45,262 nt of DNA from the NCBI GenBank assembly GCA_031362565.1, contig JANLSU010000033.1, forward strand, positions 1-45,262, read 5' to 3'. Both the position numbers and the translations under genes were made by a program. This DNA is from a bacterium. GTDB taxonomy: Bacteria; Krumholzibacteriota; Krumholzibacteriia; G020349025. Position 1 is the first letter of the stretch. Every line of letters begins with the position of its first letter. A model generated the notes under the pieces. That model had not been told where the DNA came from. It was given only the letters and a program-made list of their open reading frames with translations, and made no database searches. Of the stretch, positions 15,814 through 41,811 are shown piece by piece.

Positions 15814-17109
15814 ATGGCGCGACGATTTCAGCAACTGTTTTGCGTGCTGCTGGTGGCCGGAACATCGGCCGGAACCGGGATCCTTGCGTACGCGCAATCA
15901 CCATCCGAAGCAATGGCAAACCCCATCGCAGAGCCGGAGCGTCCGACCCTTCGAGTCGCTCTCGCACTCGCCTTGGCAGGTAATCCGTCGCTTCTGTCCT
16001 GGCCCTGGGAACTTCGGGCCCTGGAAGCGGATTCACGGCAAGCCTCGCGCCGGCCGAATCCACAGGCTGAAGCCTTGGTCGAGAACATTGCCACCGACGC
16101 TCTCGAGAGCACCCTCCAGATCTCGCAGCTCGTGGAACTCGGGGGCAAACGAGCCCGGCGCGTGGCGCTGGCTCGAGCCGAGCACGCTGTAGCGGCTTGG
16201 GAGTTTGAAGCCGCCCGGGCGGACGTCATCACGTTCACCGCACAGCGGTTCGTCGAGGCGCTCGCCGCTCAAGAGCGTGTTGCCATTCACCGAGAGATCG
16301 CTCGGGTCGCACAGGAAAGCTTTGCGGCCGTTTCGGCCCGCGTGCGTGCCGGCGGCGCCTCGTCGGTAGAAGAAACTCGCGCGGATTTGGCGCTCGAGAC
16401 GGCCCGCGTCGAGCTCGCGTCGATGGAACGGGAGCACGCGATCGCTTGCCGGCTTCTCGCCGGCGCTTGGGGCAACGACACACCACGATTCAGTGCGGTC
16501 GCCGGCAATCTTGCGTTGGTCACCGTTCCAATGCCAACCGACTCGCTCCTCGCGAAGATCGATCGCAATCCAGATGTCGCCCGATGGGCCGCCGAGATTT
16601 CACAGCGTGAGACCACCCGGGCCGCGGCACGCGGGTTGCGAGTACCCAATGTCACCTTGGACGCCGGCGTTCGAAGGCTGAGCGCCACCAACGAGACCGG
16701 ATTCCTCATCGGGGCAGGAATCCCGGTGCCGATCTTCGACCGGGGCCAGGACGCGGTGATTGCTGCCGAGCGTCGGATTCAGAGCGTCACCACGCGGCGC
16801 CAGTCGGCGCGAGTGGAAACAGCCGTGCGACTCGGCATCGCGCACGAGGAAATGGCATCGGGGCTCGCCGAGTACCGCCAGCTGGAAGACTTCCTCCTTC
16901 CGAAGGCACGGAGCGCTCACGAGGCCGCACATTCTGCCTATCGCACCGGCCTGCTTCGCCTGACCGATGTACTTGACGTACAGCGGGCTTTTTTCGACGT
17001 GCGGATGCGCACCGTCGATGCCCTCGTTCGATACCACACTGCGGAGTTCGAGATCGAGCGCCTGACGGGTTCGCCTGTCTCCGCGTCGAACACCAAGGAG
17101 CAAGAATGA
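15814..17109 (+). CDS. czcC: TolC-family outer membrane factor, CzcC-like
   Basis: QASRRPNP, SQLVELGGKRARR, IPVPIFDRGQ, YRTG...LTDVLDVQR; first gene of a CBA operon. Confidence 0.85.
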   Translation: MARRFQQLFCVLLVAGTSAGTGILAYAQSPSEAMANPIAEPERPTLRVALALALAGNPSLLSWPWELRALEADSRQASRRPNPQAEALVENIATDALESTLQISQLVELGGKRARRVALARAEHAVAAWEFEAARADVITFTAQRFVEALAAQERVAIHREIARVAQESFAAVSARVRAGGASSVEETRADLALETARVELASMEREHAIACRLLAGAWGNDTPRFSAVAGNLALVTVPMPTDSLLAKIDRNPDVARWAAEISQRETTRAAARGLRVPNVTLDAGVRRLSATNETGFLIGAGIPVPIFDRGQDAVIAAERRIQSVTTRRQSARVETAVRLGIAHEEMASGLAEYRQLEDFLLPKARSAHEAAHSAYRTGLLRLTDVLDVQRAFFDVRMRTVDALVRYHTAEFEIERLTGSPVSASNTKEQE

Positions 17110-18392
17110 TCCTTCGGCTCACACACCTACGTGACGGAGTCGCCGCGGCGGTGCTCATCCTAGTCACCGGCTGCTCGAAGGAACCCGAACATGGCGCTCC
17201 CGGCGCTGGCCATGGGGTCGAGGGCAGTGCCGCTGACCAAGCACACGAGGCGAAGGCACCCCGGGGACCGAACGGCGGTTGGCTCTTCGAGACGGATGGC
17301 ATCCGGTTCGAACTGGACATCGAAGAAGCAACCGGCCCGCCGGAGTTTGTCGGCCGCGTGTACGACACCGCCGGCAAGAGCCTTCCCGTGGGCGCGAGCA
17401 CACTATCCGTCGCGCTGGAGCGGTTCGGGGGACGGCACGAATCCATTCGGTTCACCACCGAGGGCGACCACTTCCGAAGCACTGCGGAGGTAGCGGAGCC
17501 CCATTCATTCACCGTCGCCATCACGCTGCAGCGTGATGGACGAACATACCAGTGGAATCATGAGCAGGCCGAGTTCCGCGTCGCGTTGACACCGGATGCG
17601 ATGCAAGCGGCGGGCATCACCACGGGACTGGCGTCGGCACGAACGATCGCCGTAAAGGTGAACGCTCCCGGTGAGGTGCACCTGAACGGCGAGCGCGTCC
17701 TTCAGGTCCGTCCGCGCTTTCCCGGGGTCGTGGCGCGGCTCGAGAAGCGGCTGGGGGATGGCGTCGCCGTCGGCGACCTGCTTGGCGTCATTCAGAGCAA
17801 TGAAAGCCTGAGCGATTATGAGATCCGCGCCGCGATGGCGGGCACCATCGTCGCCCGCGATGTCGCGCCCGGTGCGTCGGTCGATCGCCAAGACGTCCTC
17901 TTTACGATTGCAGACTTGCGGTCGGTATGGATCGACTTTGCGATCTATCCACAGCATATCGGCCGAGTCAAGCGCGGACAGGCCGTACACCTGCGCTCCC
18001 GGTCGGGCCCCGAACTGAACGCGTCCGGCACCGTGAGCTACGTCGGGCCATTGCTCGAGCAAGACACTCGCGTCTCGTACGGCAGGGTCGTCCTCCAAAA
18101 CGGCGATGGCCGGTGGCAACCGGGTGTTTACGTCACGGCATCCATCACCGTGGACGCTGCACAGGTTCCGGTCGCCGTCCCCGAAGTCGCCATCGTGCGC
18201 TCGAAGTTCGGGCCAGCAGTCTTTCGCGCTTCCGGTTCGACCTTCGAGATCCAGCCGATCCAGCCGGGCCGCTCCGATGGCCTCTTTACCGAAGTGCTTG
18301 CGGGTCTCGAGCCTGGATCGGAGATCGTCATCGAGAACGCGTTCCTCTTGAAGGCGGAACTTGGCAAGTCGGAGGCGACACATGATCACTGA
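17106..18392 (+). CDS. czcB: RND periplasmic adaptor, CzcB-like, lacking the alpha-hairpin
   Basis: Lipobox VTGC, CzcB-type N-domain (GPNGG...PPEF), lipoyl and beta-barrel motifs, C-terminal FLLKAELGKSEATHDH. Confidence 0.85.
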   Translation: MILRLTHLRDGVAAAVLILVTGCSKEPEHGAPGAGHGVEGSAADQAHEAKAPRGPNGGWLFETDGIRFELDIEEATGPPEFVGRVYDTAGKSLPVGASTLSVALERFGGRHESIRFTTEGDHFRSTAEVAEPHSFTVAITLQRDGRTYQWNHEQAEFRVALTPDAMQAAGITTGLASARTIAVKVNAPGEVHLNGERVLQVRPRFPGVVARLEKRLGDGVAVGDLLGVIQSNESLSDYEIRAAMAGTIVARDVAPGASVDRQDVLFTIADLRSVWIDFAIYPQHIGRVKRGQAVHLRSRSGPELNASGTVSYVGPLLEQDTRVSYGRVVLQNGDGRWQPGVYVTASITVDAAQVPVAVPEVAIVRSKFGPAVFRASGSTFEIQPIQPGRSDGLFTEVLAGLEPGSEIVIENAFLLKAELGKSEATHDH

Positions 18393-21300
18393 CCAGGCAA
18401 GCACCGGCGGCGGTACCCTGCTCGAACGGATCATTCGTTTCGCCGTTCGGCAGCGCTGGCTCGTAGTGATCGCGGCGTCTGCCATCGCCGCTCTCGGAAT
18501 ATTCAACTTCACGCGTCTGCCGATCGATGCCGTGCCCGACATCACGAACGTTCAAGTGCAGATCAACACCGAAGCCGAGGGTTTGTCGCCGATCGAGGTC
18601 GAACAGCGCATCACGTTCCCGATCGAGACCGCCATGGCGGGGCTCCCGCGGCTCGACTACACCCGCTCCCTGTCGCGTTATGCACTGTCCCAGGTCACGG
18701 TCGCATTCGAGGACGGCACCGACATCTATTTCGCTCGCCAGCTCGTGAACGAGCGGGTCCAAGAAGTGCGTGCGTCCTTGCCACCGAATAGTGGTGAGCC
18801 TTCGATGGGGCCAATCGCCACCGGACTCGGCGAGATTTTCATGTGGACGGTCGAATCGCGGCCTGGGGCGCGTAAGCCCGACGGAACGCCGTATACCCCG
18901 ATGGATCTCCGGGAGATTCAGGACTGGGTCATCAAGCCGCAGGTGCGGACCGTACCCGGTGTCACCGAGGTCAACGCCATCGGCGGTTATCGGAAAGAGT
19001 ATCTAGTGACTCCGGACCCGGCGCGTCTGATGGCCTATGGGCTGACGCTGAAGGACATTCTTCAAGCTCTGGAAAACAATAACAGCACAGTCGGTGGCGG
19101 GTTCATCGCCCACAAGGGTGAGCAGTACCTCGTTCAAACCACGGGCCGCCTCAAGAACATAGAGGAGATTGGCGAAGTCGTGATCGCGGCGCGGCGTGGA
19201 GTTCCAATCCACGTTCACGATGTCGCCAGCGTTGGCATTGGCAAGGAACTTCGCACCGGAGCCGCGACGGAAAATGGCGAAGAGGTGGTTCTGGGTACCG
19301 CCTTCATGCTCGTCGGACAGAACAGCCGCACCGTCGCGAAGGCCGTCGCCCAGAAGATGGAGGAAGTCAACCGCAACCTACCCGCCGGCATCGTTGCGAA
19401 GACGGTCTATGACCGGACCAAGCTGGTCGATGCGACGCTCGAGACCGTGCGGAACAACCTGCTCGAAGGCGCCGTGCTGGTCATCGCCGTTCTCTTTTTG
19501 CTGCTCGGGAACTTCGTCGCGGCCCTCATCGTGGCGTTGATCATCCCTCTCTCCATGCTCTTCGCGGTGAGCGGCATGGTTCAAGGGAAAATCAGCGCCA
19601 ATCTCCTCAGCCTTGGCGCCATCGATTTCGGGATCATCGTCGATGGCGCGGTCGTGATGGCGGAAAACATCGTCCGCCGGTTCGCCCATCGCCAGGGCTC
19701 GCTGGGCCGCCGGCTCAACGTGCACGAGCGGCTCCAGGAAGCCTACCTCGCGGCTTCCGAAGTCGCGCGCCCAACGCTTTTTGGCGTCGCCATCATCATG
19801 ATCGTCTACCTCCCGATCCTCACCCTGTCCGGGATCGAGGGGAAGATGTTCCGGCCCATGGCTCAGGTGGTATTGCTCGCCCTACTCGGGTCGTTGATTT
19901 TCGCGTTTACCATCGTCCCGGCCCTCGTTGCGATCCTACTGCGCCGGCCGGTGTCCGAAACCCAGAGCCCGGTGCTCAAAGCGGCCCGCCACGTGTACCT
20001 GCCGATGCTTCGCTTTAGCCTGCGGCGTCGCCGCATGGTGGTGATGGCGGCATTGGCCGGGCTCGTCGCGTGCCTCCTCCCCGCGTCCCGCCTCGGCAGC
20101 GAATTCGTCCCAACCCTGGACGAGCGCGACATTGCCGTGCATGCGCTCCGCATTCCCGGCACCAGCCTCGAGCAGGCGGTCGAAATGCAACGCCAGGTGG
20201 AGAACACCATCGAGAGCTTCCCCGAGGTCGCGTACGTCTATGCGAAGATCGGCACGGCCGAGATCGCGACGGACCCGATGCCGCCGAGTGTGGCCGATGT
20301 CATCGTGATCATGAAGCCGCGCTCCGAGTGGCCGGACCCGAAGCGCCCGAAGGCGGCCGTCGTGCAATCCATGGCCGACAAACTGGGGACGATCCCCGGC
20401 AACATGTACGAGTACACCCAACCCATTCAGATGCGATTCAACGAGCTGATCGCCGGAGTGCGGAGCGATGTGGCCGTGAAGGTGTTCGGCGACGACCTCG
20501 ATGCGCTCCGCGCCACCGCGAGCGAGATTGCGGAGGTGCTCGAGTCCGTACCGGGATCGGCGGACGTCAAGGCCGAACAAGTCAGCGGGTTGCCCGTCCT
20601 TGCAATCGACATCGATCGCACCGCGGTTTCCCGGTATGGGCTCAGCATCGCCGACGTGCAGGCCGTGATTCGAACTGCTCTCGCCGGCAGTGTCGCCGGC
20701 CAGATTTTCGAGGGCGACCGCCGTTTCGATATCACGGTACGGCTCCCGGACGATGTCCGCAACGATCTCCAAGCATTGGAGCTGTTGCCGATCCCGGTCC
20801 TTGCAAAGCCGCGTTCGGCGTTACCCGCAGCGCTCCCGACCCTCCACGACGACGAGCGCACCGAGTTCGTTCCGCTCGGTGCAATTGCCACGATTACCCT
20901 CTCGGAGGGGCCGAATCAGGTGACTCGAGAAAACGGCAAACGGCGTGTGGTGGTGCAGGCGAATGTGCGGGGGCGCGATCTGGGCGGGTTCGTTCAGGAG
21001 GCGGAAAAACGGCTGCTCGAATCGGTGGACATTCCGCCCGGTTGTTGGGTGACCTGGGGAGGGCAGTTCGAAAACCTGATTGCAGCCCGGACCCGCCTGG
21101 CGATCGTCGTTCCGCTGGCCCTGCTCCTCATCTTCGTCCTGCTGCTCGTAGCGTTCGGCTCCGCCAAGGATGCACTTTTGGTGTTCAGCGGCGTGCCACT
21201 CGCGCTGACTGGCGGGGTGCTCGCGCTCGCCATGCGCGGGATGCCGTTCTCGATCACAGCCGGAGTCGGCTTCATTGCGCTTTCCGGTGTCGCCGTGTTG

Positions 21301-21597
21301 AACGGCGTCGTCATGGTGTCTTTCATCCGGAGCTTGCGGGAGTCCGGCAAGGATCTCGACACCGCGATCCTGCAAGGCTGCGACACCCGGCTGCGCCCGA
21401 TCCTCATGACCGCGTTTGTGGCTTCGCTCGGATTCGTACCGATGGCCATCGCGACCGGCACCGGTGCGGAGGTCCAACGTCCTCTCGCGACGGTCGTCAT
21501 CGGCGGCATCCTGTCATCCACCTTCTTGACGTTGGTCGTTCTTCCCGCATTGTATCGATTGGCGCATCGCCAGCAGGAGGCGACCCCGGAACCCTGA
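18382..21597 (+). CDS. czcA: Heavy-metal efflux RND permease, CzcA-like
   Basis: LPIDAVPDITNVQVQ, TM4 SLGAIDFGIIVDGAVVMAEN, GAEVQRPLATVVIGG. Confidence 0.93.
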   Translation: MITDQASTGGGTLLERIIRFAVRQRWLVVIAASAIAALGIFNFTRLPIDAVPDITNVQVQINTEAEGLSPIEVEQRITFPIETAMAGLPRLDYTRSLSRYALSQVTVAFEDGTDIYFARQLVNERVQEVRASLPPNSGEPSMGPIATGLGEIFMWTVESRPGARKPDGTPYTPMDLREIQDWVIKPQVRTVPGVTEVNAIGGYRKEYLVTPDPARLMAYGLTLKDILQALENNNSTVGGGFIAHKGEQYLVQTTGRLKNIEEIGEVVIAARRGVPIHVHDVASVGIGKELRTGAATENGEEVVLGTAFMLVGQNSRTVAKAVAQKMEEVNRNLPAGIVAKTVYDRTKLVDATLETVRNNLLEGAVLVIAVLFLLLGNFVAALIVALIIPLSMLFAVSGMVQGKISANLLSLGAIDFGIIVDGAVVMAENIVRRFAHRQGSLGRRLNVHERLQEAYLAASEVARPTLFGVAIIMIVYLPILTLSGIEGKMFRPMAQVVLLALLGSLIFAFTIVPALVAILLRRPVSETQSPVLKAARHVYLPMLRFSLRRRRMVVMAALAGLVACLLPASRLGSEFVPTLDERDIAVHALRIPGTSLEQAVEMQRQVENTIESFPEVAYVYAKIGTAEIATDPMPPSVADVIVIMKPRSEWPDPKRPKAAVVQSMADKLGTIPGNMYEYTQPIQMRFNELIAGVRSDVAVKVFGDDLDALRATASEIAEVLESVPGSADVKAEQVSGLPVLAIDIDRTAVSRYGLSIADVQAVIRTALAGSVAGQIFEGDRRFDITVRLPDDVRNDLQALELLPIPVLAKPRSALPAALPTLHDDERTEFVPLGAIATITLSEGPNQVTRENGKRRVVVQANVRGRDLGGFVQEAEKRLLESVDIPPGCWVTWGGQFENLIAARTRLAIVVPLALLLIFVLLLVAFGSAKDALLVFSGVPLALTGGVLALAMRGMPFSITAGVGFIALSGVAVLNGVVMVSFIRSLRESGKDLDTAILQGCDTRLRPILMTAFVASLGFVPMAIATGTGAEVQRPLATVVIGGILSSTFLTLVVLPALYRLAHRQQEATPEP

Positions 21598-21630
21598 ACG
21601 CGCGACGTGCGTGCAGCGAACGGTCACATG

Positions 21631-22953
21631 TCATCGGTTCGGCTCGTCATCCAACGAGTAGCCGGAAAGCACCGGCAGGCCCGTTGCGACCTCGAGTTGC
21701 TGAAGGGCGTCGATGTAGGCACCGAGTGCGGCGCCGAAGGACCTCTCCGCATCGCGGTAACGTTGTTCGGAGAGCAGCACGGTCGTTAGGTCGATCTGGC
21801 CGGCTGCATAGGCCCCCTGATACCTCTGCCGGGCCTCCTGGATCTCCGGAAGGATCTCGTGCAAGAACAGCGAGACTTGCTGGAACGCGAGGGTTGCACT
21901 GATCTGCGTGACTTTGACCGCCGCATACGCGTCCCGGTTTGCCGCGTCCAGATTGGCTTCGACGCGACGCTTTTGTGCCGAGACCGCCGCACGTTCCGCG
22001 AGCGGGGGTCCCAGAAAAGGCACCGAGAGCCCGAGGCGTAGACCGCTCACATCGCCCCCCTCCTCTTGGCCACTAAATGCGGACACCGCGGCCCGCGGTA
22101 GAAGCTCGGCGTTTGCGAGTCGCGCCTCCGCCCTCGCCTGATCGAGCGTGGCTCGCACAGCGAGCAACTGTGGACGGTGCACCTGGGCGCGATCGAGGAG
22201 CGCCACGGTGTCCGGAAACGCCGGCACGAGCTCGAGGCTGTCGGGCTCCGGAAGCGACGTCTGGGTCGGCCAGCCGATCTCCGCCGCCAACACTTCGTGT
22301 GCCTCGCGCATGTCACGTTCGGATTCGAGAACACGCCGGCGCGCCTCGGCCGCCTCGACACGCGCCAGATCCATCTCGAGCTGGCTCGCGTCCCCGGACT
22401 CGAACCGCTTCCGAACGACATCCGCGAGCCGCTGGGCGATGTTCGACTGGCGCACGGTGCGGTCGTGGATCCACAACCGGCGCAGCCGCTCGCAATAGCT
22501 CCATCCAACCTCGGCGGCCCAGGCTCGCGCCTGCACATCAACTTCCGAAAGACCGGTGCGGCGCGCCGCGCTCGCAGCTCGCGCCCGGAACACACCAGCG
22601 CCGAACGGCTCGACCGCAACCGTGCCTTCAACGACTCGGTCCTGATGCTTCCCCTCACCCGGCCGTTGCCGCGTCGCCCATTCGACACTCAGCGAAGGCG
22701 ACTCGGGCAGCCAGAAGCCGCGTACGCGAGCCTCCGCCCGCACTCGGTCACGCTCGGCCCCGCGGGCCTCGGCTCGCGCCGCATGCTCGCGTGCATAGAC
22801 GAGCGCTTGACGCAACGTTTGTGGATCCGCCGCCGCCGCGATCGGAATCTCGAGGATGCAAAAAACGACACCGAGCGCGACCTTTATTTTCCAGGCGTGC
22901 AACCTCACTTCTCCGCTCTCCAATCGACGTCGTGCCACCACAATCCTCCACAT
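21631..22953 (-). CDS. TolC-family outer membrane factor (second HME operon)
   Basis: KRFESGDASQLE, YAAGQIDLTTVL, LEVATG; last gene of the operon; exact start uncertain. Confidence 0.8.
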   Translation of the reverse strand: MWRIVVARRRLESGEVRLHAWKIKVALGVVFCILEIPIAAAADPQTLRQALVYAREHAARAEARGAERDRVRAEARVRGFWLPESPSLSVEWATRQRPGEGKHQDRVVEGTVAVEPFGAGVFRARAASAARRTGLSEVDVQARAWAAEVGWSYCERLRRLWIHDRTVRQSNIAQRLADVVRKRFESGDASQLEMDLARVEAAEARRRVLESERDMREAHEVLAAEIGWPTQTSLPEPDSLELVPAFPDTVALLDRAQVHRPQLLAVRATLDQARAEARLANAELLPRAAVSAFSGQEEGGDVSGLRLGLSVPFLGPPLAERAAVSAQKRRVEANLDAANRDAYAAVKVTQISATLAFQQVSLFLHEILPEIQEARQRYQGAYAAGQIDLTTVLLSEQRYRDAERSFGAALGAYIDALQQLEVATGLPVLSGYSLDDEPNR

Positions 22954-22955
22954 CG

Positions 22956-23516
22956 CTAGAACAGGCGCGCCAACAGTTCGCGAGATTCGCGACTCCGCCA
23001 GTCCCGTGCGCCGCCGAAGCGAACCCTTAGTTGCCCGGTTGCGCTCACGAGATACGTGTCGGGCAGGAGCGATACTTCGTACTTTCGGTAGCCGTTCATG
23101 GTTCGATCTCTGACAACCCCGGGTGGCACCTCGCCACAAAAAAACTCGCGCACCGGCGCCCAGTCCGGATCGACGCTCACCGCCAAGACCTCGACCTTGC
23201 GGACACGAGCGACATCGCGTACACACGCCAGCAGCGTCGGCAGCTCGGTGCGGCACGGCGGACACCATGTGGCCCAGAAGTGCAGCAACACCGGAGTGCC
23301 GCGAAGTTCCGCAAGCCGAACGACCGAACCGTCGGGCTTCTCGAGTTCCAGGTCCGGTGCTTCGGCACCGCTTTGGAGTTCCTCGTAGGACGGCAGTGCC
23401 GGGCCCACACTGCGCCGTCGCGCGTCGACGTATCGGTACGCAAGCAACACGAGTGCTTGACCCACGACCAGTAGGCCCACAACCGCTCCGACTCGCACAA
23501 GTCGCTTACGTCTCAA
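22956..23516 (-). CDS. Membrane-anchored TlpA/ResA-like thiol:disulfide oxidoreductase
   Basis: N-terminal TM, LLHFWATWCPPCRTELP, cis-Pro LPDTYLV; 4-nt overlap with the RND gene. Confidence 0.88.
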   Translation of the reverse strand: MRRKRLVRVGAVVGLLVVGQALVLLAYRYVDARRRSVGPALPSYEELQSGAEAPDLELEKPDGSVVRLAELRGTPVLLHFWATWCPPCRTELPTLLACVRDVARVRKVEVLAVSVDPDWAPVREFFCGEVPPGVVRDRTMNGYRKYEVSLLPDTYLVSATGQLRVRFGGARDWRSRESRELLARLF

Positions 23517-26500
23517 CCGAGCCCCCCGACTCCAGCGGATCCGCGCTCCATGTGGCGGCCCCGCGGCCCCGTCCGGCCCAGCGTGTAGAGCACCGGCAGA
23601 ACCAGCAATGTCAGCAGCGTCGACGACACCACACCGCCGATGACCACGGTCGCCAGGGGACGCTGCACCTCAGCACCGACCCCGGTGTTGAGTGCCATCG
23701 GCACGAACCCGAGACTCGCCACGAGGGCCGTCATCAGGACGGGACGCAGGCGCGCCAGGCTGCCCTGCTCGACTGCGTCCTCGACCGTCGACCCTTCCGC
23801 CTGCAAGTGCTGAAACAGAGTCACCATCACCAGCCCATTCAGAACGGCGACCCCGGACAGTGCGATGAACCCGACTCCGGCTGAAATGCTGAACGGGATG
23901 TGGCGCAGCCAAAGCGCTACGATGCCGCCGACAGCGGCGAAGGGCACGGCGGCGAAAAGACGCACCGCATCCAGCAACCGTCCGTAGGTGAAATAGAGCA
24001 ACGCAAAGATCAGGATCAGGGCCATCGGCACCACCAACATCAGACGCTGCTTGCCGCGCTCCAGATGCTCGAACTGGCCCCCGAATCGCACAAAGTACCC
24101 TGCTGGGAGTTGAACTTGCCGGTCGATCGCGCGCTTCGCGTCAGCGACATAACCGCCCACATCGCGGTCGCGCACGTTGACTTGCACTACCACCCGCCGC
24201 TTCGCCCACTCGCGGCTGATCGTCGACGGCCCTTCGACGGTGCGGATGTGGGTGAGCGCCGCGAGCGGCAGCCGGTCGCCGCTGGCGGACGCGACGAGGA
24301 CTTGGCCCATCGCCACGGGGTCCTCCCGATACCGATCATCGAGCCGGACAGCAATCGGGAAGCGCCGGTTACCTTCTTGCATCTGCCCGACCTCGCGAGT
24401 TCCGAGTGCTTCGACCACGGCGAGCACCTCACGCGCCGGAATGCCGTAGCGTGCGATGGCGTCGCGATCGATCTCGACCTGGATCGTCGGCTGCCCGGTC
24501 AACTGTTCCGTCACTACGTCGGCGGCACCAGGAATGATCTTCAGCGCCGCCTCGATTTCCTTCGCCTTGGCCTTCAAGATGTCGAAGTCGTCGCCGAAGA
24601 GCTTGACCCCGACGTCGGAACGGATTCCGGCAACCATCTCGTTGACCCGCATTTCGATAGGCTGTGTAAAAACCATCCTCATCCCCGGCATCGAGGCGAG
24701 TTCTGCTTCCATTTCAAGCACGAGCTCGTCCTGAGTCTTGGCGCGCTTCCACTGCTTTGTAGGCGTCAGCGTGATGAAGACGTCCGAGAGTTCCAACCCC
24801 ATCGGGTCGGTCGCGACTTCGGCCGTGCCCGTGCGGGTCCAAACGCGCTCGATTTCATGGGGGAACTCGTCTAGTAGAACTTGTTCGATGCGGGAACCAT
24901 AGCGTACCGACTCGTCGACGGAAACGCCTGCCAGCCGGATCGTATTGATGACGATCGAGCCCTCGCGGAGGCGGGGGACGAATTCCGACCCGAGGCGGGT
25001 CGCGAGAAAGGCAGCATTCGCGACAATGATGGCCACGATCCCGAGGACCAAGCCACGCCGGCGCATCGCAAACCGCAGCATCGGACGATAGACGCGCTTC
25101 AGCGCCCGGACGATCGCGTTCTCGCCTTCCTTCATGTGGCGCGGCAGAATCAGGCTCGTGAGAACGGGCATGAGGGTGAGCGAGAGCGCCATCGAGCCGA
25201 GCAGCGCGAAAATAACCGTCATTGCCATGGGCCGGAAGAGTTTGCCCTCGACGCCTTCCAGCGCGAGAATCGGCAAATAGACGATCATGATGATGAGTTC
25301 GCCGAACATGGTCGGCTTGCGCACTTCGATCACCGCATCCCGGACGACATCGATCCGGCGGCGCGAACTTCGATCCTCTGCTAGTCGCCGCACCGCGTTC
25401 TCGACCTGGATGACCGAACTGTCGACCACGAGGCCGAAGTCGAGCGCTCCCAAGCTCATGAGACTGCCGGCAATGCCGGCCCGCAGCATGAGGTCGAAGG
25501 CGAAGAGCATTGAGAGCGGAATGGCCGCAGCCACAATGAGCCCAGCGCGCAGGTTGCCCAGAAACACGAACAACACCGCAATGACGAGCAATGCACCTTC
25601 GAAGAGGTTCTTCTTCACGGTGTGAAGGACGCGGTCGACCAGCGCCGTGCGGTCGTAAACGTTCGTCACCTCGATGCCCACCGGGAGGCTCTTCTTGATC
25701 TCGTCGAGACGCACCCGGAGCTGGTTCGCAACCTTGTGGCTGTTTTCACCCATGAGCATGAAACCAAGCCCGAGGACGACCTCGCCCTTACCATCGGCCG
25801 TCACCGCGCCACGCCGGATCTCGCGTCCCTCGACGATCTTGCCAATGTCATGGATGTGGATCGGGACGCCCTGACGCGCCGTGATCACGATTTGCCCCAC
25901 GTCCTCGGGCCGGGTCACGATGCCGATCCCCTGGATGAGGCTCGATTCGCCGGCTTGATCGAGGGTGCCACCGCCGACGTTGGCGTTGTTCTGTTCCAGC
26001 GCCTCGATGACCTCTGAGAAGCTCAGGTCGTGCTTCTGGAGTTCGAGCGGATCGAGAACAACCTGAATCTGCCGCTCGTCGCCGCCCCAGGTGTTGACCT
26101 CCGCCACCCCGGGGACCGTGCGGAGCTGTGGCTTGATGATCCAATCCTGGACCGTGCGCAATTCCGCGAGCGACTTGTCCTTACCTGTGACGAGGTAATG
26201 AAAGATCTCTCCGAGGCCGGTCGCGACCGGGCCCAACTGCGGCCGCTCGATCCCGGCCGCGAGTTGCACCGTTTGCAAACGTTCCATGGCGACTTGGCGC
26301 GCGAAGTAGATGTCCGTGCCATCGTCGAAGAGGACGGTCACCTGTGACAGCCCAAACTTCGAGATCGAACGAACCTCGTGTAAGTACGGCAAGCCGGAAA
26401 TCGCCTGCTCGACTGGCGAGGTAATTTGCCGCTCGATCTCGAGCGGTGAGAGTGCGGGTGCGACGGTATTGATTTGCACCTGCACCGGCGTCGTATCGGG

Positions 26501-26617
26501 GAAGGCGTCGAGCGGCAACCGTTTGAAGGCGACGAGCCCGGCCAGAATGATCCCGCCCCAGGCGACGAGCACGACGAGCCGGTGCTCGAGCGACCACGTG
26601 ATGATGCGGTTCAGCAT
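23513..26617 (-). CDS. Heavy-metal efflux RND permease, CusA/CzcA family (second copy)
   Basis: LPLDAFPDTTPVQVQ, TM4 SLGALDFGLVVDSSVIQVEN, GAEVQRPLATVVIGG. Confidence 0.93.
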   Translation of the reverse strand: MLNRIITWSLEHRLVVLVAWGGIILAGLVAFKRLPLDAFPDTTPVQVQINTVAPALSPLEIERQITSPVEQAISGLPYLHEVRSISKFGLSQVTVLFDDGTDIYFARQVAMERLQTVQLAAGIERPQLGPVATGLGEIFHYLVTGKDKSLAELRTVQDWIIKPQLRTVPGVAEVNTWGGDERQIQVVLDPLELQKHDLSFSEVIEALEQNNANVGGGTLDQAGESSLIQGIGIVTRPEDVGQIVITARQGVPIHIHDIGKIVEGREIRRGAVTADGKGEVVLGLGFMLMGENSHKVANQLRVRLDEIKKSLPVGIEVTNVYDRTALVDRVLHTVKKNLFEGALLVIAVLFVFLGNLRAGLIVAAAIPLSMLFAFDLMLRAGIAGSLMSLGALDFGLVVDSSVIQVENAVRRLAEDRSSRRRIDVVRDAVIEVRKPTMFGELIIMIVYLPILALEGVEGKLFRPMAMTVIFALLGSMALSLTLMPVLTSLILPRHMKEGENAIVRALKRVYRPMLRFAMRRRGLVLGIVAIIVANAAFLATRLGSEFVPRLREGSIVINTIRLAGVSVDESVRYGSRIEQVLLDEFPHEIERVWTRTGTAEVATDPMGLELSDVFITLTPTKQWKRAKTQDELVLEMEAELASMPGMRMVFTQPIEMRVNEMVAGIRSDVGVKLFGDDFDILKAKAKEIEAALKIIPGAADVVTEQLTGQPTIQVEIDRDAIARYGIPAREVLAVVEALGTREVGQMQEGNRRFPIAVRLDDRYREDPVAMGQVLVASASGDRLPLAALTHIRTVEGPSTISREWAKRRVVVQVNVRDRDVGGYVADAKRAIDRQVQLPAGYFVRFGGQFEHLERGKQRLMLVVPMALILIFALLYFTYGRLLDAVRLFAAVPFAAVGGIVALWLRHIPFSISAGVGFIALSGVAVLNGLVMVTLFQHLQAEGSTVEDAVEQGSLARLRPVLMTALVASLGFVPMALNTGVGAEVQRPLATVVIGGVVSSTLLTLLVLPVLYTLGRTGPRGRHMERGSAGVGGLG

Positions 26618-26620
26618 CGT

Positions 26621-27994
26621 CTATTTCTTCGTCTCGACATCGCAGCAGCCGGCACCGATGCTTTCCTTGAGCGTCTCGGTCTTGAGCAAGAAGCTGCCTT
26701 CCGTCACGACGAGTTCCCCAGGTCGAATGCCTTGGGCCAGTTCGATCAAATCCCCGCTCCCCGGGCTCACTTGGACCCGGCGTGTTTCATATACGTCACT
26801 CGCCAGTTGAACGAAGACCAGCGAAATCCCCTTGGCTCGCTGTAAGGCGCTCCTGGGGATCGCAACCGAGGTGCGGGTTTCGCCGACCGCGATCATGGCC
26901 CGGCCATACATGTTTGCCCGGAGTACGCCGTCGGGGTTCTTGAGACGAGCGCGTGCCAGTGCCGTGCGAGTTTTGGGATCGATTGCCGGCGCGATGTAGT
27001 CGATCTTTCCGGTGAATTCGCGCTCGCCCAATCCATCGACGCTCACGACGACCGCCTGGCCGACCTGGACTGCAGACAGCTCGGCCTCGGGAAGGTCGAT
27101 CTCGGCCCACATGGACGAAGGATCGACGATCTCGAACAGCGTTTCCTCGACATCGACCAACGTCCCGATGCTGCTGTTGCGCTGGGTGATGATGCCGTCG
27201 AGGGGAGCCAAGAGGGTATACGCCCCGTCTCCGCCGGTCGTACCAACGATTCGAAGCGCCTTGAGCGTCCCTTCCTCCTCGGCTTTGGCGGCTTCGAGTT
27301 CCTGCTGCGACAGCATCGCATCCTTCGCGGGCACGATCCCCTTCTCGAGAAGATCTTTCGTGCGGCGGTAGTTTGCGTCGGCGACCTCGCGTCGCGCATG
27401 GGCAGCGAGAAGTTTCGATTGGTCGGCGCCCACGCTGGCACTCTCGATCTCGACCAGCGGCCTCCCGCGCCGCACCTTGGTTCCGACATCGACGTACATG
27501 GCCCGGACAACACCGGAGGCCCGCGCGTTGACGTGCGCAACGCGGGTCCCGTCGTAGGCGATCCGGACAACCGCTACGACCCCGGTCTGGTTCGGCCGCT
27601 CCACGGCTGCGACAGTCTCGATCCCAGCGCGTCGCGCCGTTTCCTTGGTCTTGAAGCGGATCTTCGTGCCGTTCGTGGGCGCGCCATCGTCCGTGACGTC
27701 GGCCGATGGTTTGCCGCCGCGATCCGGATGGCAGATGGGGCAGAAGGACTCTGGGAACCCGTGTGCCGCGCACCAGTCACCCTTGGCTTGAAACACCGGG
27801 ACGAGCTTCGGATTGCATTTCGTGCAAACCGCTTCGAGAATGTGGTGCTCGCTGCAAATGCCGGCAGCATCGGCGGCCGCCATCGCCAACGGCGCCGTCC
27901 CGCTGGCGACAGGCGCCTTCGCATCCGCATGGCGCTGCCCGCAAGACGTAACGAGCGTCAAAGCCGCGACGGCGAAGAGATGAGTCCAGCGCAT
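26621..27994 (-). CDS. RND periplasmic adaptor with N-terminal tandem Cys/His domain
   Basis: Lipobox VTSC; CSEHHILEAVCTKCNP...WCAAHGFPESFCPICHP; normal hairpin/lipoyl core; ends GAGCCDVETKK. Confidence 0.88.
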   Translation of the reverse strand: MRWTHLFAVAALTLVTSCGQRHADAKAPVASGTAPLAMAAADAAGICSEHHILEAVCTKCNPKLVPVFQAKGDWCAAHGFPESFCPICHPDRGGKPSADVTDDGAPTNGTKIRFKTKETARRAGIETVAAVERPNQTGVVAVVRIAYDGTRVAHVNARASGVVRAMYVDVGTKVRRGRPLVEIESASVGADQSKLLAAHARREVADANYRRTKDLLEKGIVPAKDAMLSQQELEAAKAEEEGTLKALRIVGTTGGDGAYTLLAPLDGIITQRNSSIGTLVDVEETLFEIVDPSSMWAEIDLPEAELSAVQVGQAVVVSVDGLGEREFTGKIDYIAPAIDPKTRTALARARLKNPDGVLRANMYGRAMIAVGETRTSVAIPRSALQRAKGISLVFVQLASDVYETRRVQVSPGSGDLIELAQGIRPGELVVTEGSFLLKTETLKESIGAGCCDVETKK

Positions 27995-27996
27995 CC

Positions 27997-28356
27997 CTAC
28001 TTCACCTCCGCCTTCGCCGGCCGTACGATCTTCAGGTCCGGATTGCACTGCAGGCACTGACTCTCCGGCAGTCCGTGCTCGCCGCACCAATCGCCGGTTG
28101 CCTTGAAAGCCGCGACGAGCGTCGGATTACAGCGCGTGCAAAGCGACTCCTGGACCCCGTGCTTTGCGCACCAATCCTCGTACGATCCAGGTGTGACGCT
28201 GGCGTCGGCATGAATCGCGTCGCCCTTGGCGGGCGCCGGGACCGCGTCCGAGGCCTCAGGCGGGGTCTTCTTCCCCGGCTCCGAGCGCTCCCCACCGCAT
28301 CCGATCAGGACGGCCAGTGTCACGAACACCAACCGGCTTCCATACTTCGTTCGCAT
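27997..28356 (-). CDS. Small lipoprotein consisting of the tandem Cys/His domain
   Basis: Lipobox LIGC; WCAKHGVQESLCTRCNP...WCGEHGLPESQCLQCNP; GAGAGGA RBS. Confidence 0.82.
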   Translation of the reverse strand: MRTKYGSRLVFVTLAVLIGCGGERSEPGKKTPPEASDAVPAPAKGDAIHADASVTPGSYEDWCAKHGVQESLCTRCNPTLVAAFKATGDWCGEHGLPESQCLQCNPDLKIVRPAKAEVK

Positions 28357-28475
28357 GATCACATTCCTCTCACGCATGAGTCGCGACGTCCGGTACCACC
28401 GGACGACGTTGACAGACGCACTTCCTCCCGAGAGCGATGTGCCCAAGGGAGCGCGTGCGCTAGGCCGAATCGGAG

Positions 28476-28775
28476 TTATGCGATCGAAGATCGTGGAACG
28501 TGGAAGATGTCGAACGATGTGGGCAGCGTGCGATCCGTGTCGCGAGACACAAACACCGGGACGGCGAAGCGGGGGGAATCGAGGCTCGTTACGGCCGCCG
28601 GCATGAACACCTGCGACGCAAAGCAGCAATGGCACGAAGCGCACGGCGGTGGCATGAGACCGGAATCCGTCGAGGCGCATTCCTGAGCGCAATCGTCGCC
28701 ACAGGCGAACCCCTGGATGCCCAGGACTTGGGTGGCGAAAAGGGCCAGGAAGAGTATGGCGAGGACCTTCATCAT
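28476..28775 (-). CDS. Small exported Cys-rich protein heading the second HME operon (CzcI/DUF2946-like)
   Basis: MMKVLAILFLALFATQVLG...CGDDCAQEC...CASCHCC...DIFHVPR. Confidence 0.7.
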   Translation of the reverse strand: MMKVLAILFLALFATQVLGIQGFACGDDCAQECASTDSGLMPPPCASCHCCFASQVFMPAAVTSLDSPRFAVPVFVSRDTDRTLPTSFDIFHVPRSSIA

Positions 28776-28992
28776 TCCGGCCTGCTTCTCCGAGCGTCGG
28801 GATATTCCTCGAAACCACGCGGCGATGATCGGTGGCGCCACCTTCGACCCAGTATAGCCTGCGGCCCCACGAACGACTACCCCAAAGAGACCCTCAGTGG
28901 ACATGGCGATGATGCGCGTCGGGGAGCCCCACGGCTCTTTCTTGGACGGGCCTGACAGGCTCCGGCCGATGTCGATGGCTGGCCGCCCGCGC

Positions 28993-30240
28993 TCAAGCGT
29001 GGCCGCCGCGTTCGACGATCAACCCCAGCGCCGCTTCGTTCACCCATTCGCGGTCGTGGAAGCTTTGGCCCCACATGACCGGGGTGACCTCGGGATATTC
29101 GTGCACCGACTCGTCCGCGACGAAGCGCAGGCGCTTGCGCAACGAGGCACGCGCGTTCGGATCGGCGCCGTGGTCCAAGAAGATCCGTGCGAAGCCATCA
29201 TCCGTCCGCAACGCCGTCCGGTAGGTCTGCGAGACCACGCACCCGAATAGCGGTGTGTGGCCGCCAAACCCATCCGCATCCACGGCGCCCTTGGCATTCA
29301 CGTCGGCGCCGCGCGCCATCAGCCAGCGCGCGATTTCGATCTCCTCGTAGTCAGCGCACAGGTGCAGCAAGGTCCCGCCCGCAACCGGCGTTCCGTGCAA
29401 GGCCAAGGACTCGTCGGCATGACAGCCGAGTTCCGGCGGGAAGATGTCGTGATGCGAAAACGTGCGGCCGAGGAGCGCCGGATCACGGCGCAGATGGGCC
29501 TCGAGAAGATCGATGCGCCCGCGGTGGACGGCCATGGGTGGCGTGTCCGGGAGCGCGATGCCGTTGGCGTCGCACAGTTCGAGACACTCATGTTTGCCCT
29601 GTGGATCGCGGCTGTATGTTTCAAGAAGCATCGCCACCGGAGCCACCCGGCTGCCCTCGGCATCACGCAATTCGGCGCCGAGTTCGAGAACAAGCGCCAG
29701 TCCGGCAGAATTCTGTGTCTCGCATGGACCCATAGCGGCATCCGGCCCGGGCCGCGCGCCCATGGCGTACAGAGAGCGTGCCGTCTCGAGCTGGCCCTGC
29801 AAACACGCCCGGTCGAACGCTGGCTGCAGATCAGTTGCACCCCGCTCGCGGAGCATGGCGATGATGCGATCCCGCCCGAGGTTCGCCGCGTACGACATCG
29901 GCGGACCCCAGTTGCTCGGACAACCACGCGCGTCCTCGTGCAGCAGCTGCGGGTGCTTCACTACGAGATCGCGCACCGCCTGCAGGTCGTCGCGCCAGAG
30001 GGCGTCGGTCATGCGGCACGCCAGCACGAGACGCGGCCACGTTGTGATGCCGTACAAACGCGCCAAGACGAGCTGCGCGTCGGCAAGCTTCGCCTGGCTG
30101 GCCTCGATTCGTGCCGGATGATGCTTGGCGAGCGCCGCAATGGCGGTCGCATCCTGGCTCTGCAGCGCGCGGAGGAGCTCTTTCGCTTGGTGCTTGAGCT
30201 GTTCCAAATCGGGCCGGACAGGAAAGTGACGATCGGCCAT
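28993..30240 (-). CDS. Ankyrin-repeat protein with N-terminal P-x-LEQLKHQAK helical domain
   Basis: FPVRPDLEQLKHQAKELL...AQLVLARLYGITTWPRL; GGTLLHLCADY...GADVNA, GHTPLF, GADPNA; GAAGGAGG RBS. Confidence 0.85.
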   Translation of the reverse strand: MADRHFPVRPDLEQLKHQAKELLRALQSQDATAIAALAKHHPARIEASQAKLADAQLVLARLYGITTWPRLVLACRMTDALWRDDLQAVRDLVVKHPQLLHEDARGCPSNWGPPMSYAANLGRDRIIAMLRERGATDLQPAFDRACLQGQLETARSLYAMGARPGPDAAMGPCETQNSAGLALVLELGAELRDAEGSRVAPVAMLLETYSRDPQGKHECLELCDANGIALPDTPPMAVHRGRIDLLEAHLRRDPALLGRTFSHHDIFPPELGCHADESLALHGTPVAGGTLLHLCADYEEIEIARWLMARGADVNAKGAVDADGFGGHTPLFGCVVSQTYRTALRTDDGFARIFLDHGADPNARASLRKRLRFVADESVHEYPEVTPVMWGQSFHDREWVNEAALGLIVERGGHA

Positions 30241-30372
30241 GACGGACCTCCTTCGTCGGGTGCCCGCGGTCCGCTCGCGTCGGGCGCAAAGGAGGTTCGT
30301 GTGAACCCTGCGACTTGTCTGCAGATCAGGTGGACTCAGTCCTGTCCGCGGACCGGAGGCGTCCTGCACGCC
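30241..30372 (-). ncRNA. Candidate structured cis-regulatory 5' leader
   Basis: Several hairpins, a long-range GGTCCGC/GCGGACC stem, and an anti-SD ACCTCCTT complementary to the SD AAGGAGGT. Starts at the predicted TSS of TTGCTC-N18-TACGCT. Confidence 0.5.
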
Positions 30373-30505
30373 GCCACGAGCGTAGCGCGGCCGCCGCGCC
30401 GCGAGCAACCCCAACCTTGCCCCGCCGACGGTCGACGCGACTTGCGTCAACGCGCGCCGGCGAGTATTCTTCGGCCAGCCAGCCGGAACCCGGAAGCCCT
30501 TTTTG

Positions 30506-31132
30506 ATGCGACAGGCTTGGATCGTCTCCTTGCTGCTTGCCAGCCCCGTGGCCGCTGCGGCGGCAGATCCCCTCTACGAAATTGGCGCCGCTTTAGGAGC
30601 GTTCTCCGAAAATGAAGTCCAACAGGCCTACCCGCGCGACTTTGGGTTGTCCGGGTCGATTGGCGCGCGGGGCCGGTTCCAAGTCTTGACGGGCTTCGTG
30701 GAGGCCGGTTTTGCCACCGCATCCACCGATCACTACCGCGATCCGACGTTCGATTTCGGCCCCACCCGTTACTGGATCATGCCGGTGCTGTGCGGATTTC
30801 GCGCCAACCTGGAGGCCCCGAACCGCCCGGGAATCAGCCGGTTCGACCTTGGAATGGCGGCGGTCATCGCACTCACACACTGGGACGATGTCTTCGGCAC
30901 GAACCACTCCGAAAGCACGTGGGGGTTCGCATTCGACGCCGGCCCGGGATGGGCGGTCAATGAACGCTGGGGCGTTTGGCTCCGGGCCCGCGTGATGCTG
31001 CTCGCACCAACGAGTTACGGCGACGCAGTGGGGAGCGTCAATCATTCGCGCGCCGAGTTGCGCCTGGGGACCTGGTTCGGACGCGGTGGCACGGTGCGTC
31101 CGGATCCTCTCGCAGATCGGAGCGCACCGTGA
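30506..31132 (+). CDS. Outer-membrane beta-barrel-like hypothetical protein
   Basis: Signal peptide, alternating amphipathic strands, late ELRLGTWF. Confidence 0.6.
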   Translation: MRQAWIVSLLLASPVAAAAADPLYEIGAALGAFSENEVQQAYPRDFGLSGSIGARGRFQVLTGFVEAGFATASTDHYRDPTFDFGPTRYWIMPVLCGFRANLEAPNRPGISRFDLGMAAVIALTHWDDVFGTNHSESTWGFAFDAGPGWAVNERWGVWLRARVMLLAPTSYGDAVGSVNHSRAELRLGTWFGRGGTVRPDPLADRSAP

Positions 31133-32307
31133 AGATGCAACTTTGGCTGGTGTTGGCGATCGTCCTCGGCGCCGCGTCTCCTGCCGCTGCCCTCGCTCCC
31201 GTGCCATGCTACGGTTGCGACCTGCGATGGGATTCGCAATTCACGCTCGCGGTCCTGGACCACGCCGCGGGTCGAATGCGCTTGGTGCCAAACATCCAGT
31301 TCAGAGGCCAGTCGCGCGACTTTGCGCTCGTCATTCCGACTCCGGCGCTACCGGCATTTTCATTGGCTCCGCCGACGGTGTGGACCGAAGTCCTGAACGC
31401 GACGAGTCCGGTCTCGACCAACTCCACGAACTTTGGCTGCAACCAGCAGGTTGGGATCTCATCCCCGATACCGGCCGGCGGTGTCACGATCCATGCACAG
31501 CAGAATATTGGTGGACTCCGAACAACGGTCATTTCTTCGGGTGATCCGCAGAGTCTCGTCGATTGGCTCGGCGCCAACGGCTACGGCCTGCCGCCCGGTG
31601 ATGCGGCGCGTTTTGCGCCGTACGTCAGTCGTCATTGGTTCTTCACCGCGATGCAGCCCGATACGACGACGGCGTCGGGGCAGATGCCGCCCGAAGGCTG
31701 GAATGCGCAGATCCAGCCTATCGTGTTGACCTATGCGGCCGATACGTTCGAGGTGCCGCTCGATTTGTTGACCATCGAGACCGGATACCAAGCTCCCATC
31801 GCGGTATTTGCCATCGACGATCATCGCATGACGTTGGATGGTTTCACGACCGAATACGCGAATCGATTGAGCGCCGCGGAGTTCAGCGCCATGCAGCGCC
31901 TCTATCCCGGCCTCGCGACGTTCCTCGCACCCGGCCGCTTTCTGACCCGGCTGCAATACGTTGTCTACGGATCGGACCCACCACGTGGGTCAGTGCGACT
32001 CCACCAAGCCCCCACCGACGCGGAATTCCGGCGTACGGGGAGTTATTACGGGCTGCGGTACGCGGGTGTGGGCCCGCTGCTGCTCGTCGTCGCACTTCTC
32101 GCCGCGCGCCGCCGCGCCCGGCGCACTGGGTTGGGACGGCAGTATTCCTCATCTCGCCGAGTCGTGCCCTGGCGCACTCTTGATTCGTGCCAGTCCCTCG
32201 GTCGCGAGTTCGACCTGGGGATTCAACTCGAGCGCCCGTTGGTAGTGCAGACGAGCGCCCGGTTGGTCAGCGAGGTTCTCCAACACCAAACCCAGAAGCG
32301 CGTGTGA
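31129..32307 (+). CDS. DUF2330-like protein with C-terminal TM and basic tail
   Basis: IQFRGQSRDFALVIPTP, DPQSLVDWLGANGY, PYVSRHWFFTAM, IQPIVLTY; GTGA overlap with the upstream gene. Confidence 0.7.
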   Translation: MKMQLWLVLAIVLGAASPAAALAPVPCYGCDLRWDSQFTLAVLDHAAGRMRLVPNIQFRGQSRDFALVIPTPALPAFSLAPPTVWTEVLNATSPVSTNSTNFGCNQQVGISSPIPAGGVTIHAQQNIGGLRTTVISSGDPQSLVDWLGANGYGLPPGDAARFAPYVSRHWFFTAMQPDTTTASGQMPPEGWNAQIQPIVLTYAADTFEVPLDLLTIETGYQAPIAVFAIDDHRMTLDGFTTEYANRLSAAEFSAMQRLYPGLATFLAPGRFLTRLQYVVYGSDPPRGSVRLHQAPTDAEFRRTGSYYGLRYAGVGPLLLVVALLAARRRARRTGLGRQYSSSRRVVPWRTLDSCQSLGREFDLGIQLERPLVVQTSARLVSEVLQHQTQKRV

Positions 32308-37366: not shown

Positions 37367-37379
37367 GACGTTCGCCTCC

Positions 37380-41668: not shown

Positions 41669-41811
41669 GGAAATCCCATCCGGAACGGGTGACAAGGCAT
41701 TTGGGCGAGGTTGGCTAAAACACATTCTAGTACGGTCGTCCGGAAGCGAAGGTTCCCGAAAAAGGGACCACCCGCTTCCTCAAAGGGTGGAACTGCACCC
41801 TTGCATGGCGT

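Follow-up and report, generated by a model that had tools for sequence, protein, structure and literature searches.

How periplasmic metal reaches a divalent-metal efflux pump of the resistance-nodulation-division (RND) type is a question still open in the field, and the handling of periplasmic metal by RND systems is understood from one example, CusF–CusB–CusA, with its oxidation-resistant methionines. The question is raised, for thiolate ligands, by a six-gene operon in the window analyzed here (the whole 45,262-nt stretch of contig JANLSU010000033.1, from a bacterium of the Krumholzibacteriota). It encodes a Cys-rich leader, a small lipoprotein, a periplasmic adaptor, an RND pump for heavy-metal efflux (HME), a TlpA-like thiol:disulfide oxidoreductase, and an outer-membrane factor (OMF), and a short Cys3His module occurs both in the lipoprotein and at the adaptor N-terminus. 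Comparison of the locus with its relatives suggests, with moderate confidence, a sulfur-ligand variant of Czc/Zne-type heavy-metal RND efflux, equipped with Cys3His capture modules and a reductase. Judged against characterized systems, the module, the Cys-Cys adaptor tail, and the HME-RND-linked TlpA appear to be new, and the relay principle (CusF–CusB) and the pump class (Zne/Czc type) would be known ones.

The free lipoprotein and the N-terminus of the adaptor share the module, which represents a genuine domain family that has no name yet. In the lipoprotein gene the unit in full, C-x2-H-x3-E-x2-C-x2-C-[NH]-P, begins at 28170 and 28086, and in the adaptor gene at 27856 and 27772; no other copy is present in any of the window's six frames, so that its double occurrence in both genes, claimed in the original prediction, was confirmed in number and position. 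The looser pattern C-x2-H-x6-C-x2-C had one extra match in the window, interrupted by a stop codon, with a chance level of 0.035 matches on average and 2 at most in 200 codon shuffles of the window. In a word-seeded search, 1102 of 1105 candidates (65–209 aa) proved to be small homologues at E ≤ 0.001, and nearly all of these, where named at all, are called "hypothetical". In a profile search of 1.84 billion proteins, counted as cluster representatives, 798 passed E ≤ 0.001, of which 484 scored 1e-10 or better and 74 scored 1e-30 or better; the 798 comprised free proteins of about 100–140 aa, proteins with several repeats (as many as five matched stretches), and adaptor fusions of 450–850 aa. 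Among 37 longer family members scanned against Pfam, HlyD_D23 was detected in 25 and no family in 12, and no fusion partner besides HlyD_D23 was found. One 576-aa protein (P0239) carried the module C-terminal and not N-terminal to the HlyD core, at residues 354–401; this may reflect either another architecture or two genes called as one.

Within an alignment of 48 lipoprotein sequences, the lipobox Cys20, H49, and the residues C63, H66, C73, and C76 and C91, H94, C101, and C104 were invariant, and the lipobox Cys18 was nearly so in the adaptor alignment. Both proteins have the lipobox of bacterial lipoproteins, and their lipidation is predicted from sequence. The lipoprotein and the adaptor are the two module carriers, in all, of the window's genome. 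Across its phylum, a match at E ≤ 1e-5 was present in 34 of 208 species genomes (22 of the 125 high-quality ones), and in most of the 34 the module lay only within an adaptor-sized open frame, indicating that the adaptor-fused form seems commoner than the free lipoprotein. Against Pfam at E ≤ 0.1, the lipoprotein matched DUF5363 alone (13.6 bits, cut-off 25.8); neither it nor the leader matched NCBIfam, and the lipoprotein had no match to the CusF family in either database. A PDB sequence search with the module profile yielded a THAP zinc finger alone, at chance level (E 0.29). No description of the module, of the Cys-Cys adaptor tail, or of a TlpA gene inside an HME-RND operon was found in the full-text literature searched (subscription journals not covered). 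The original statement that no characterized example was known has thus held, and the family is one that genome annotation has so far left "hypothetical".

For comparison, 80 loci (L001–L080) were fetched from species genomes of several phyla: 48 were labeled Myxococcota, five Eisenbacteria, five Pseudomonadota (metagenome-assembled genomes), two Gemmatimonadota, two Planctomycetota, and one each Rokubacteria, Krumholzibacteria, and Zixibacteria, and 15 had no phylum label; the loci are related to one another. Wherever there was room, the lipoprotein was followed by the adaptor (75/76 loci) and its operon continued with an RND gene (64/64). The RND proteins linked to the module (59 including the window's) formed one group, split from 15 control HME-RNDs with a support of 100 (FastTree), so the suspected co-occurrence of the repeat with HME-RND pumps was borne out and belongs to one RND clade. 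The window's pump is a CusA/CzcA heavy-metal efflux RND (TIGR00914, 1221.2 bits, cut-off 701.45; ACR_tran, E 1e-286). Linked and control pumps differed at 33 well-conserved columns, including Ser400 in transmembrane helix 4 (TM4), which has Ser-Ser in the linked pumps and Gly-Ala in the controls. The adaptor scored above the cut-offs of TIGR01730 (RND_mfp; 166.3 bits vs. 94.9) and HlyD_D23 (155.3 bits vs. 30, E 1.8e-45) and below that of the CzcB/NccB subfamily (TIGR00999; 167.1 bits vs. 319.3), and the OMF had two OEP (PF02321) repeats (79.8 bits, cut-off 22). As for the operon itself, the proposed gene order and the tight coupling of the last five genes proved correct: the junctions measured 2 nt (lipoprotein–adaptor), 3 nt (adaptor–RND), -4 nt (RND–TlpA), and 2 nt (TlpA–OMF). 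The TlpA-like gene starts at a TTG and is overlapped by 4 nt by the RND stop, and the adaptor, RND, and OMF genes start at ATG; the gap between leader and lipoprotein is 119 nt.

A second feature sets the linked adaptors apart. The adaptor had been said to end in GCC; the cysteines are present in ...SIGAGCC (Cys450 and Cys451 of 457), but they are not the literal end, as DVETKK follows. SIGAGCC plus a few acidic residues ended 72 of the 76 linked adaptors; the four others comprised three truncated or frameshifted open reading frames (ORFs) and one with GDGCTDD. SIGAGCC was absent from all 16 other HME adaptors of the same loci; one of these was a mis-assigned overlapping frame, and 11 of the remaining 15 had H-x-H-type tails. 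This swap of His-x-His for Cys-Cys, at a second and independent place, suggests that the cysteines handle metal and is the strongest single argument of the present analysis. As read from the alignments, the linked system appears to trade histidine for thiolate chemistry at the adaptor tail. Pump clade, thiolate–histidine module on lipoprotein and adaptor, Cys-Cys tail, and, frequently, a private reductase are exchanged together.

The ligand positions of the module were examined by aligning 364 repeats (window and loci together) to a single-module profile. The tetrad C-H-C-C was found in 324 repeats, a C-x1-H spacing variant (gap in the first column) in 22 plus one ending in H, C-H-C-H in 10, C-H-D-C in three, and D-H-C-C, D-H-C-H, C-H-C-R, and a tetrad with a gap in one each. 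The histidine was kept in all 364 repeats, and the ligand positions that vary change to His or Asp, which favors metal ligands and disfavors disulfides. Moreover, with three cysteines per module and odd module numbers (25 of 77 adaptors had one, three, or five), the cysteines cannot all pair as disulfides. The module number of adaptors ranged from zero to five by the strict pattern, and "zero-module" adaptors (L012, L018, and L026) carried Cys2His2-type variants. In many adaptors the final module has the sequence C-P-x-C-H-P, and some relatives have C-P-V-H-H-P, with the second Cys replaced by His. Taken together, this comparative evidence suggests that the modules behave as metal sites.

For the predicted structure, a first AlphaFold2 model of the lipoprotein, built with 48 close homologues, was poor (predicted local distance difference test (pLDDT) 54.6), whereas with 65 more diverse sequences residues 50–119 were modeled at pLDDT 90–97. 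The better model had no Foldseek match in the PDB at E ≤ 10 and no VIA-align match among 48,161 chains at Z ≥ 2, results that are usual for small domains poor in secondary structure and prove neither a new nor a known fold.

The fifth gene of the operon encodes a reductase-like protein with AhpC-TSA (60.1 bits vs. 26) and Redoxin (46.5 vs. 26.6) matches, a WCPPC motif, and a hydrophobic N-terminus, which fell below the curated cut-offs of TlpA (NF047696; 60.8 bits vs. 230) and ResA (NF002854; 74.8 vs. 170). A TlpA-like gene lay directly 3' of the pump in 35 of the 61 loci with room (36 counting an over-extended ORF in L026) and beside none of the 14 control pumps (Fisher P = 4.6e-5, a value that overstates independence, the loci being related). 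In the TlpA tree, 38 of the 39 linked-labeled rows, including the window's, fell on one side of a branch with a Shimodaira–Hasegawa-like approximate likelihood ratio test (SH-aLRT) support of 85, and six paralogues from the window's own genome fell on the other; the odd row was a second, non-adjacent gene in L070. All 39 rows kept W-C-x-x-C. The best own-genome paralogue reached E 5e-14 (34% identity), and linked copies in other phyla reached 4e-55. A dedicated TlpA-like clade is thus statistically linked to the operon, as an often-lost accessory: of the dedicated thioredoxin in the original prediction, the distinct, linked clade has stood and its general presence has not. Eight further TlpA-like paralogues are present in the window's genome, along with one DsbD/CcdA-type (DsbD_TM) membrane protein. 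In this genome, rated 100% complete by marker genes, no DSBA, DsbB, or VKOR match was detected, and there was one weak Thioredoxin_4 match, a result that speaks against structural disulfides formed by an enzyme; a classical oxidative pathway for disulfides may be missing from the organism.

On this basis, each module of about 16 residues (C-x2-H-x6-C-x2-C) would bind one metal ion via three thiolates and one imidazole. The two modules on the membrane-tethered lipoprotein and the two on the flexible adaptor N-terminus (none to five in relatives) would take up a divalent metal from the periplasm, with Zn(II) or Cd(II) the likeliest, and the captured metal would be handed to the Cys-free, carboxylate-based pump or used to switch the pump on, a role parallel to that of CusF and the CusB N-terminus for Cu(I). 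The TlpA/ResA-like reductase, fed by the single DsbD/CcdA-type protein, would hold the module thiols reduced for metal binding, the role that TlpA has for ScoI and CoxB. Which metal is carried, whether it is transferred or acts as a switch, and what the reductase acts on are matters that we infer. A contact between lipoprotein and adaptor was predicted for adaptor residues 19–457, lipoprotein residues 45–119, and four Zn: the interface score ipSAE (interaction prediction score from aligned errors) was 0.38 (0.36, 0.38, and 0.43 in three runs) vs. 0.00 for the best of three controls, with at least 66% contact agreement between runs and a partner pLDDT of at least 72. When this score was calibrated, 116 of 157 solved complexes came up to its mark, as did 2 of 215 mismatched pairs, and values up to 0.60 belonged to 18 of the 157 solved complexes and to both passing mismatches, so the prediction weakly supports the contact. 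Of the CusF-like metallochaperone relay proposed at the outset, the domain common to lipoprotein and adaptor is therefore observed, and the transfer step is suggested by that likeness and a weak complex prediction.

Several points weigh against the capture reading. Cys3His sites typically hold structural zinc very tightly, and metal transfer from such a site to the pump's carboxylate site would be uphill without a release mechanism. The spread of zero to five strict-pattern modules among adaptors leaves no fixed donor–acceptor stoichiometry, and many genomes of the window's phylum have an adaptor-fused copy only, with no free lipoprotein. The TlpA-like gene is missing from 26 of the 61 loci, and even from a Sorangium strain with sister strains that carry it, and its presence on the RND tree needs at least 11 changes, 8–9 of them forced by well-supported branches; these absences and repeated losses mark it as accessory and not obligate, and mean that many organisms run the system with no reductase encoded in the operon. 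With no DSBA, DsbB, or VKOR match, it is also less obvious why the window's genome should need a dedicated reductant. Finally, by its calibration, a complex score of this size would be wrong oftener than right, except where the guess had been a likely one from the start.

The alternative that stands up best to these data treats the modules as structural zinc knuckles. Each would hold a permanent Zn(II) for protein–protein contact, such as that of a lipoprotein module with an adaptor module or with the pump, the lipoprotein would be an extra structural subunit and not a chaperone, and TlpA would be needed in maturation alone, where it would keep the cysteines reduced until zinc insertion. Cys3His and Cys2His2 tetrads are indeed classic structural zinc ligand sets, and the module folds confidently into a compact domain with little secondary structure; the weak predicted lipoprotein–adaptor contact, under the calibration caveats above, would also suit an interface, as would a lipoprotein that is almost always present beside adaptors of variable module number. 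However, the replacement of His-x-His by Cys-Cys at the adaptor C-terminus points to metal handling throughout the system, up to five modules on flexible N-termini fit capture better than a defined interface, and the association of the module is exclusive to metal pumps. Structural knuckles are thus considered unlikely, though still a serious competitor to capture.

The nature of the metal bears on a second alternative, in which the pump would export soft monovalent or mercuric ions, i.e., Cu(I), Ag(I), Au(I), or Hg(II), and so differ in substrate from Zne/Czc. Thiolate-rich sites and vicinal Cys-Cys pairs favor soft metals; in addition, a periplasmic reductase is linked to the operon, and the linked pump clade is distinct at the 33 columns mentioned, with Met646 and Met661 conserved in linked pumps and other residues there in the controls. 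Nevertheless, the closest solved pump is ZneA (706.1 bits), which outscores CusA (632.5 bits), and a residue-by-residue alignment showed that the TM4 Asp, Asp, and Glu of ZneA (4k0e) are kept in the window's pump as DFG-x3-D-x6-EN. These acidic residues are the hallmark of divalent HME-RNDs. TM4 signatures serve to tell the divalent from the monovalent HME classes (PMC7060636). Furthermore, Hg(II) and Cu(I) bis- or tris-thiolate sites need no histidine, unlike the module, in which it is universal. Cysteines were absent from 33 of 58 linked RND relatives, and numbered one in 22, two in two, and three in one; the window's pump has none. With ZneA closest and the TM4 acidic residues kept, a divalent Zn/Cd-type metal is favored as the likeliest substrate, although it may instead be Pb, Co, Ni, or Hg, and a soft-metal pump is decidedly improbable. 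The "thiophilic metals" of the original prediction accordingly become uncertain, the pump being Cys-free, with an Asp-Asp-Glu TM4 and a Zn(II) exporter as its nearest solved relative.

A further variant of the relay gives the reductase a part in every cycle. Binding would be too tight for unaided release, and the metal would be expelled at the pump when the thiols were oxidized, whether by oxygen, by a partner, or by the metal stress as such, after which the TlpA-like reductase would re-arm the module with cytoplasmic electrons. Such redox gating is something of a long shot; if true, it would couple thiol redox chemistry to periplasmic metal export.

Two candidates in which no free metal ion is handled, disulfide-bonded structural cysteines and heme c on the CxxCH of adaptor module 2, were rejected as very improbable: periplasmic cysteines are usually oxidized, 66 of the 198 adaptor repeats read C-x2-C-H, a look-alike of the heme c attachment motif, and the best score of the reductase was to ResA, an apocytochrome reductase, yet the His or Asp substitutions, the three cysteines in odd numbers of modules, a linked enzyme of the reductase and not the oxidase type, and a genome with no DsbA, DsbB, or VKOR detected speak against disulfides, and the replacement of the second Cys of the would-be CxxCH by His in L012, L018, and L026, together with C-x2-C-N or C-x2-C-D in 164 of 166 lipoprotein repeats, speaks against heme.

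Read as a capture system, the operon resembles CusCFBA of Escherichia coli (and SilF/SilB), in which a small periplasmic metal-binding protein is encoded beside the RND adaptor (for the role of CusF in CusCFBA, see the review PMC8277102), the flexible adaptor N-terminus has the same kind of ligands as the free protein, and an HME-RND pump is served. It differs in that the ligands would be Cys3His instead of Met/His/Trp, the free protein and the adaptor N-terminus have one repeated domain in common, unlike CusF and CusB, the free protein is a lipoprotein without a match to the CusF sequence family, and the pump is Zne-like and not CusA-like. With ZneCAB and CzcCBA it has in common a pump nearest ZneA, the TM4 acidic residues, and the tripartite architecture with adaptor and OMF; unlike them, it has Cys-Cys in place of the adaptor His tail, Ser-Ser in TM4 where the controls have Gly-Ala, and, in addition, N-terminal Cys3His modules, a free lipoprotein, and a reductase. 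In Bradyrhizobium, TlpA maintains the cysteines that serve as Cu ligands in CoxB and ScoI in the reduced state until these proteins are metallated (PMC6669012); like it, the reductase here is a membrane-anchored, periplasmic, thioredoxin-like protein, but it is encoded inside a metal efflux operon, belongs to its own clade, and has putative substrates.

The nearest known domain in ligand order is HMBD (PF19335; C-P-M-H ... C-P-x-C-G-M), found on metal ATPases and some adaptors, which likewise has C-x2-H and then C-x2-C and is located at N-termini of metal transport proteins. Its loop has 10 residues and that of the module six, and its flanks (Y-T-C-P-M-H-P and C-G-M) differ from those of the module (D-W-C-x-E-H and C-N-P). 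Membership of the module in HMBD was rejected, with no Pfam match and an hhalign probability of 1.5% over 12 columns, and the analogy in ligand order was kept. In a protein atlas, an HMBD cluster appeared at rank 18 (score 0.80), which may serve as a lead only. HMBD itself occurs on one control adaptor, in L070, and at five other sites in the window's genome. PmcY (PA3962) of Pseudomonas aeruginosa has been proposed to act in the periplasm as a Zn(II) chaperone with links to the efflux and the sensing of zinc; it differs from the present lipoprotein in using the aspartates D40, D47, and D65, in having no Cys, in its cation diffusion facilitator (CDF) operon, and in signaling to CzcS, and no sequence relation between the two was noted. 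The operon family may offer a defined, widely distributed test case for a chaperone relay serving divalent RND pumps, for periplasmic thiolate sites, and for their reductant.

The Cys-rich leader, which the original prediction had counted as part of the thiolate system, turned out not to be specific to it. It had no Pfam or NCBIfam match, and a word-based homologue search found the leader itself alone, whereas three rounds of iterated profile (hidden Markov model) searches in the 80 loci increased the related ORFs from 10 to 39 to 53. Members of this fast-evolving family share a signal peptide, an acidic cluster of cysteines (C-P-D-D ... C-P-P-x-C-x-x-C-x-C), and, C-terminally, the motif F/L-H/R-V/P-P-R/K. 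Leader relatives headed the operon in 44 of the 68 loci with enough upstream DNA; the leader lay directly 5' of the lipoprotein in 28 cases, and in 21 the OMF lay in between. At least three relatives (L007, L046, and L065) headed HME operons without the Cys3His module, indicating that the leader accompanies the HME-RND operons of these phyla in general. The features of the operon are listed in Table 1.

Table 1. Genes and sequence motifs of the six-gene efflux operon in the window.
Feature	Position	Strand	Basis
Six-gene operon, all genes co-directional; order leader, lipoprotein, adaptor, RND, TlpA-like, OMF	21631–28775	-	
Leader, 99 aa, secreted; signal peptide, acidic Cys cluster PPPCASCHCC, C-terminal FHVPR	28476–28775	-	translation
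Small lipoprotein, 119 aa; two Cys3His modules; lipobox LIGC (LAVLIGC), Cys20	27997–28356	-	translation
Lipoprotein module 1, CAKHGVQESLCTRCNP, C63–P78	28123–28170	-	six-frame pattern search
Lipoprotein module 2, CGEHGLPESQCLQCNP, C91–P106	28039–28086	-	six-frame pattern search
Periplasmic adaptor, 457 aa; lipobox TSC (LVTSC), Cys18; two N-terminal Cys3His modules, CusB/HlyD barrel-sandwich core	26621–27994	-	
Adaptor module 1, CSEHHILEAVCTKCNP, C47–P62	27809–27856	-	six-frame pattern search
Adaptor module 2, CAAHGFPESFCPICHP, C75–P90	27725–27772	-	six-frame pattern search
Adaptor Cys450–Cys451 within SIGAGCC	26642–26647	-	translation
HME-RND inner-membrane pump, 1034 aa, no Cys; TM4 DFG-x3-DSS-x3-VEN	23513–26617	-	
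Membrane-anchored TlpA/ResA-like thiol:disulfide oxidoreductase, 186 aa; WCPPC at residues 84–88	22956–23516	-	
OMF, about 440 aa from the ATG at 22953	21631–22953	-	OEP match

With regard to expression signals, a promoter and terminator scan of 21400–29200 stayed at chance level (one promoter-like site vs. 0.8 expected, seven terminator-like sites vs. 5.5). No regulator gene adjoins the operon within the window, and no metal-responsive regulator or two-component system was seen nearby. Upstream, the operon is flanked by an ankyrin-repeat protein gene (28993–30450, minus strand) and a DUF2330 protein gene (30976–32307, plus strand). On its other side, a convergent, classical OMF–adaptor–RND operon of Czc type (15814–21597, plus strand) ends 34 nt from the OMF gene studied here; its adaptor has the His tail SEATHDH, and its pump has three Cys and a TM4 reading DFG-x3-DGA. 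A third efflux cluster (34250–41725, minus strand) consists of an adaptor gene (40484–41725) followed by two RND genes (37380–40487 and 34250–37444), a tandem arrangement reminiscent of two-pump systems of the MdtABC type.

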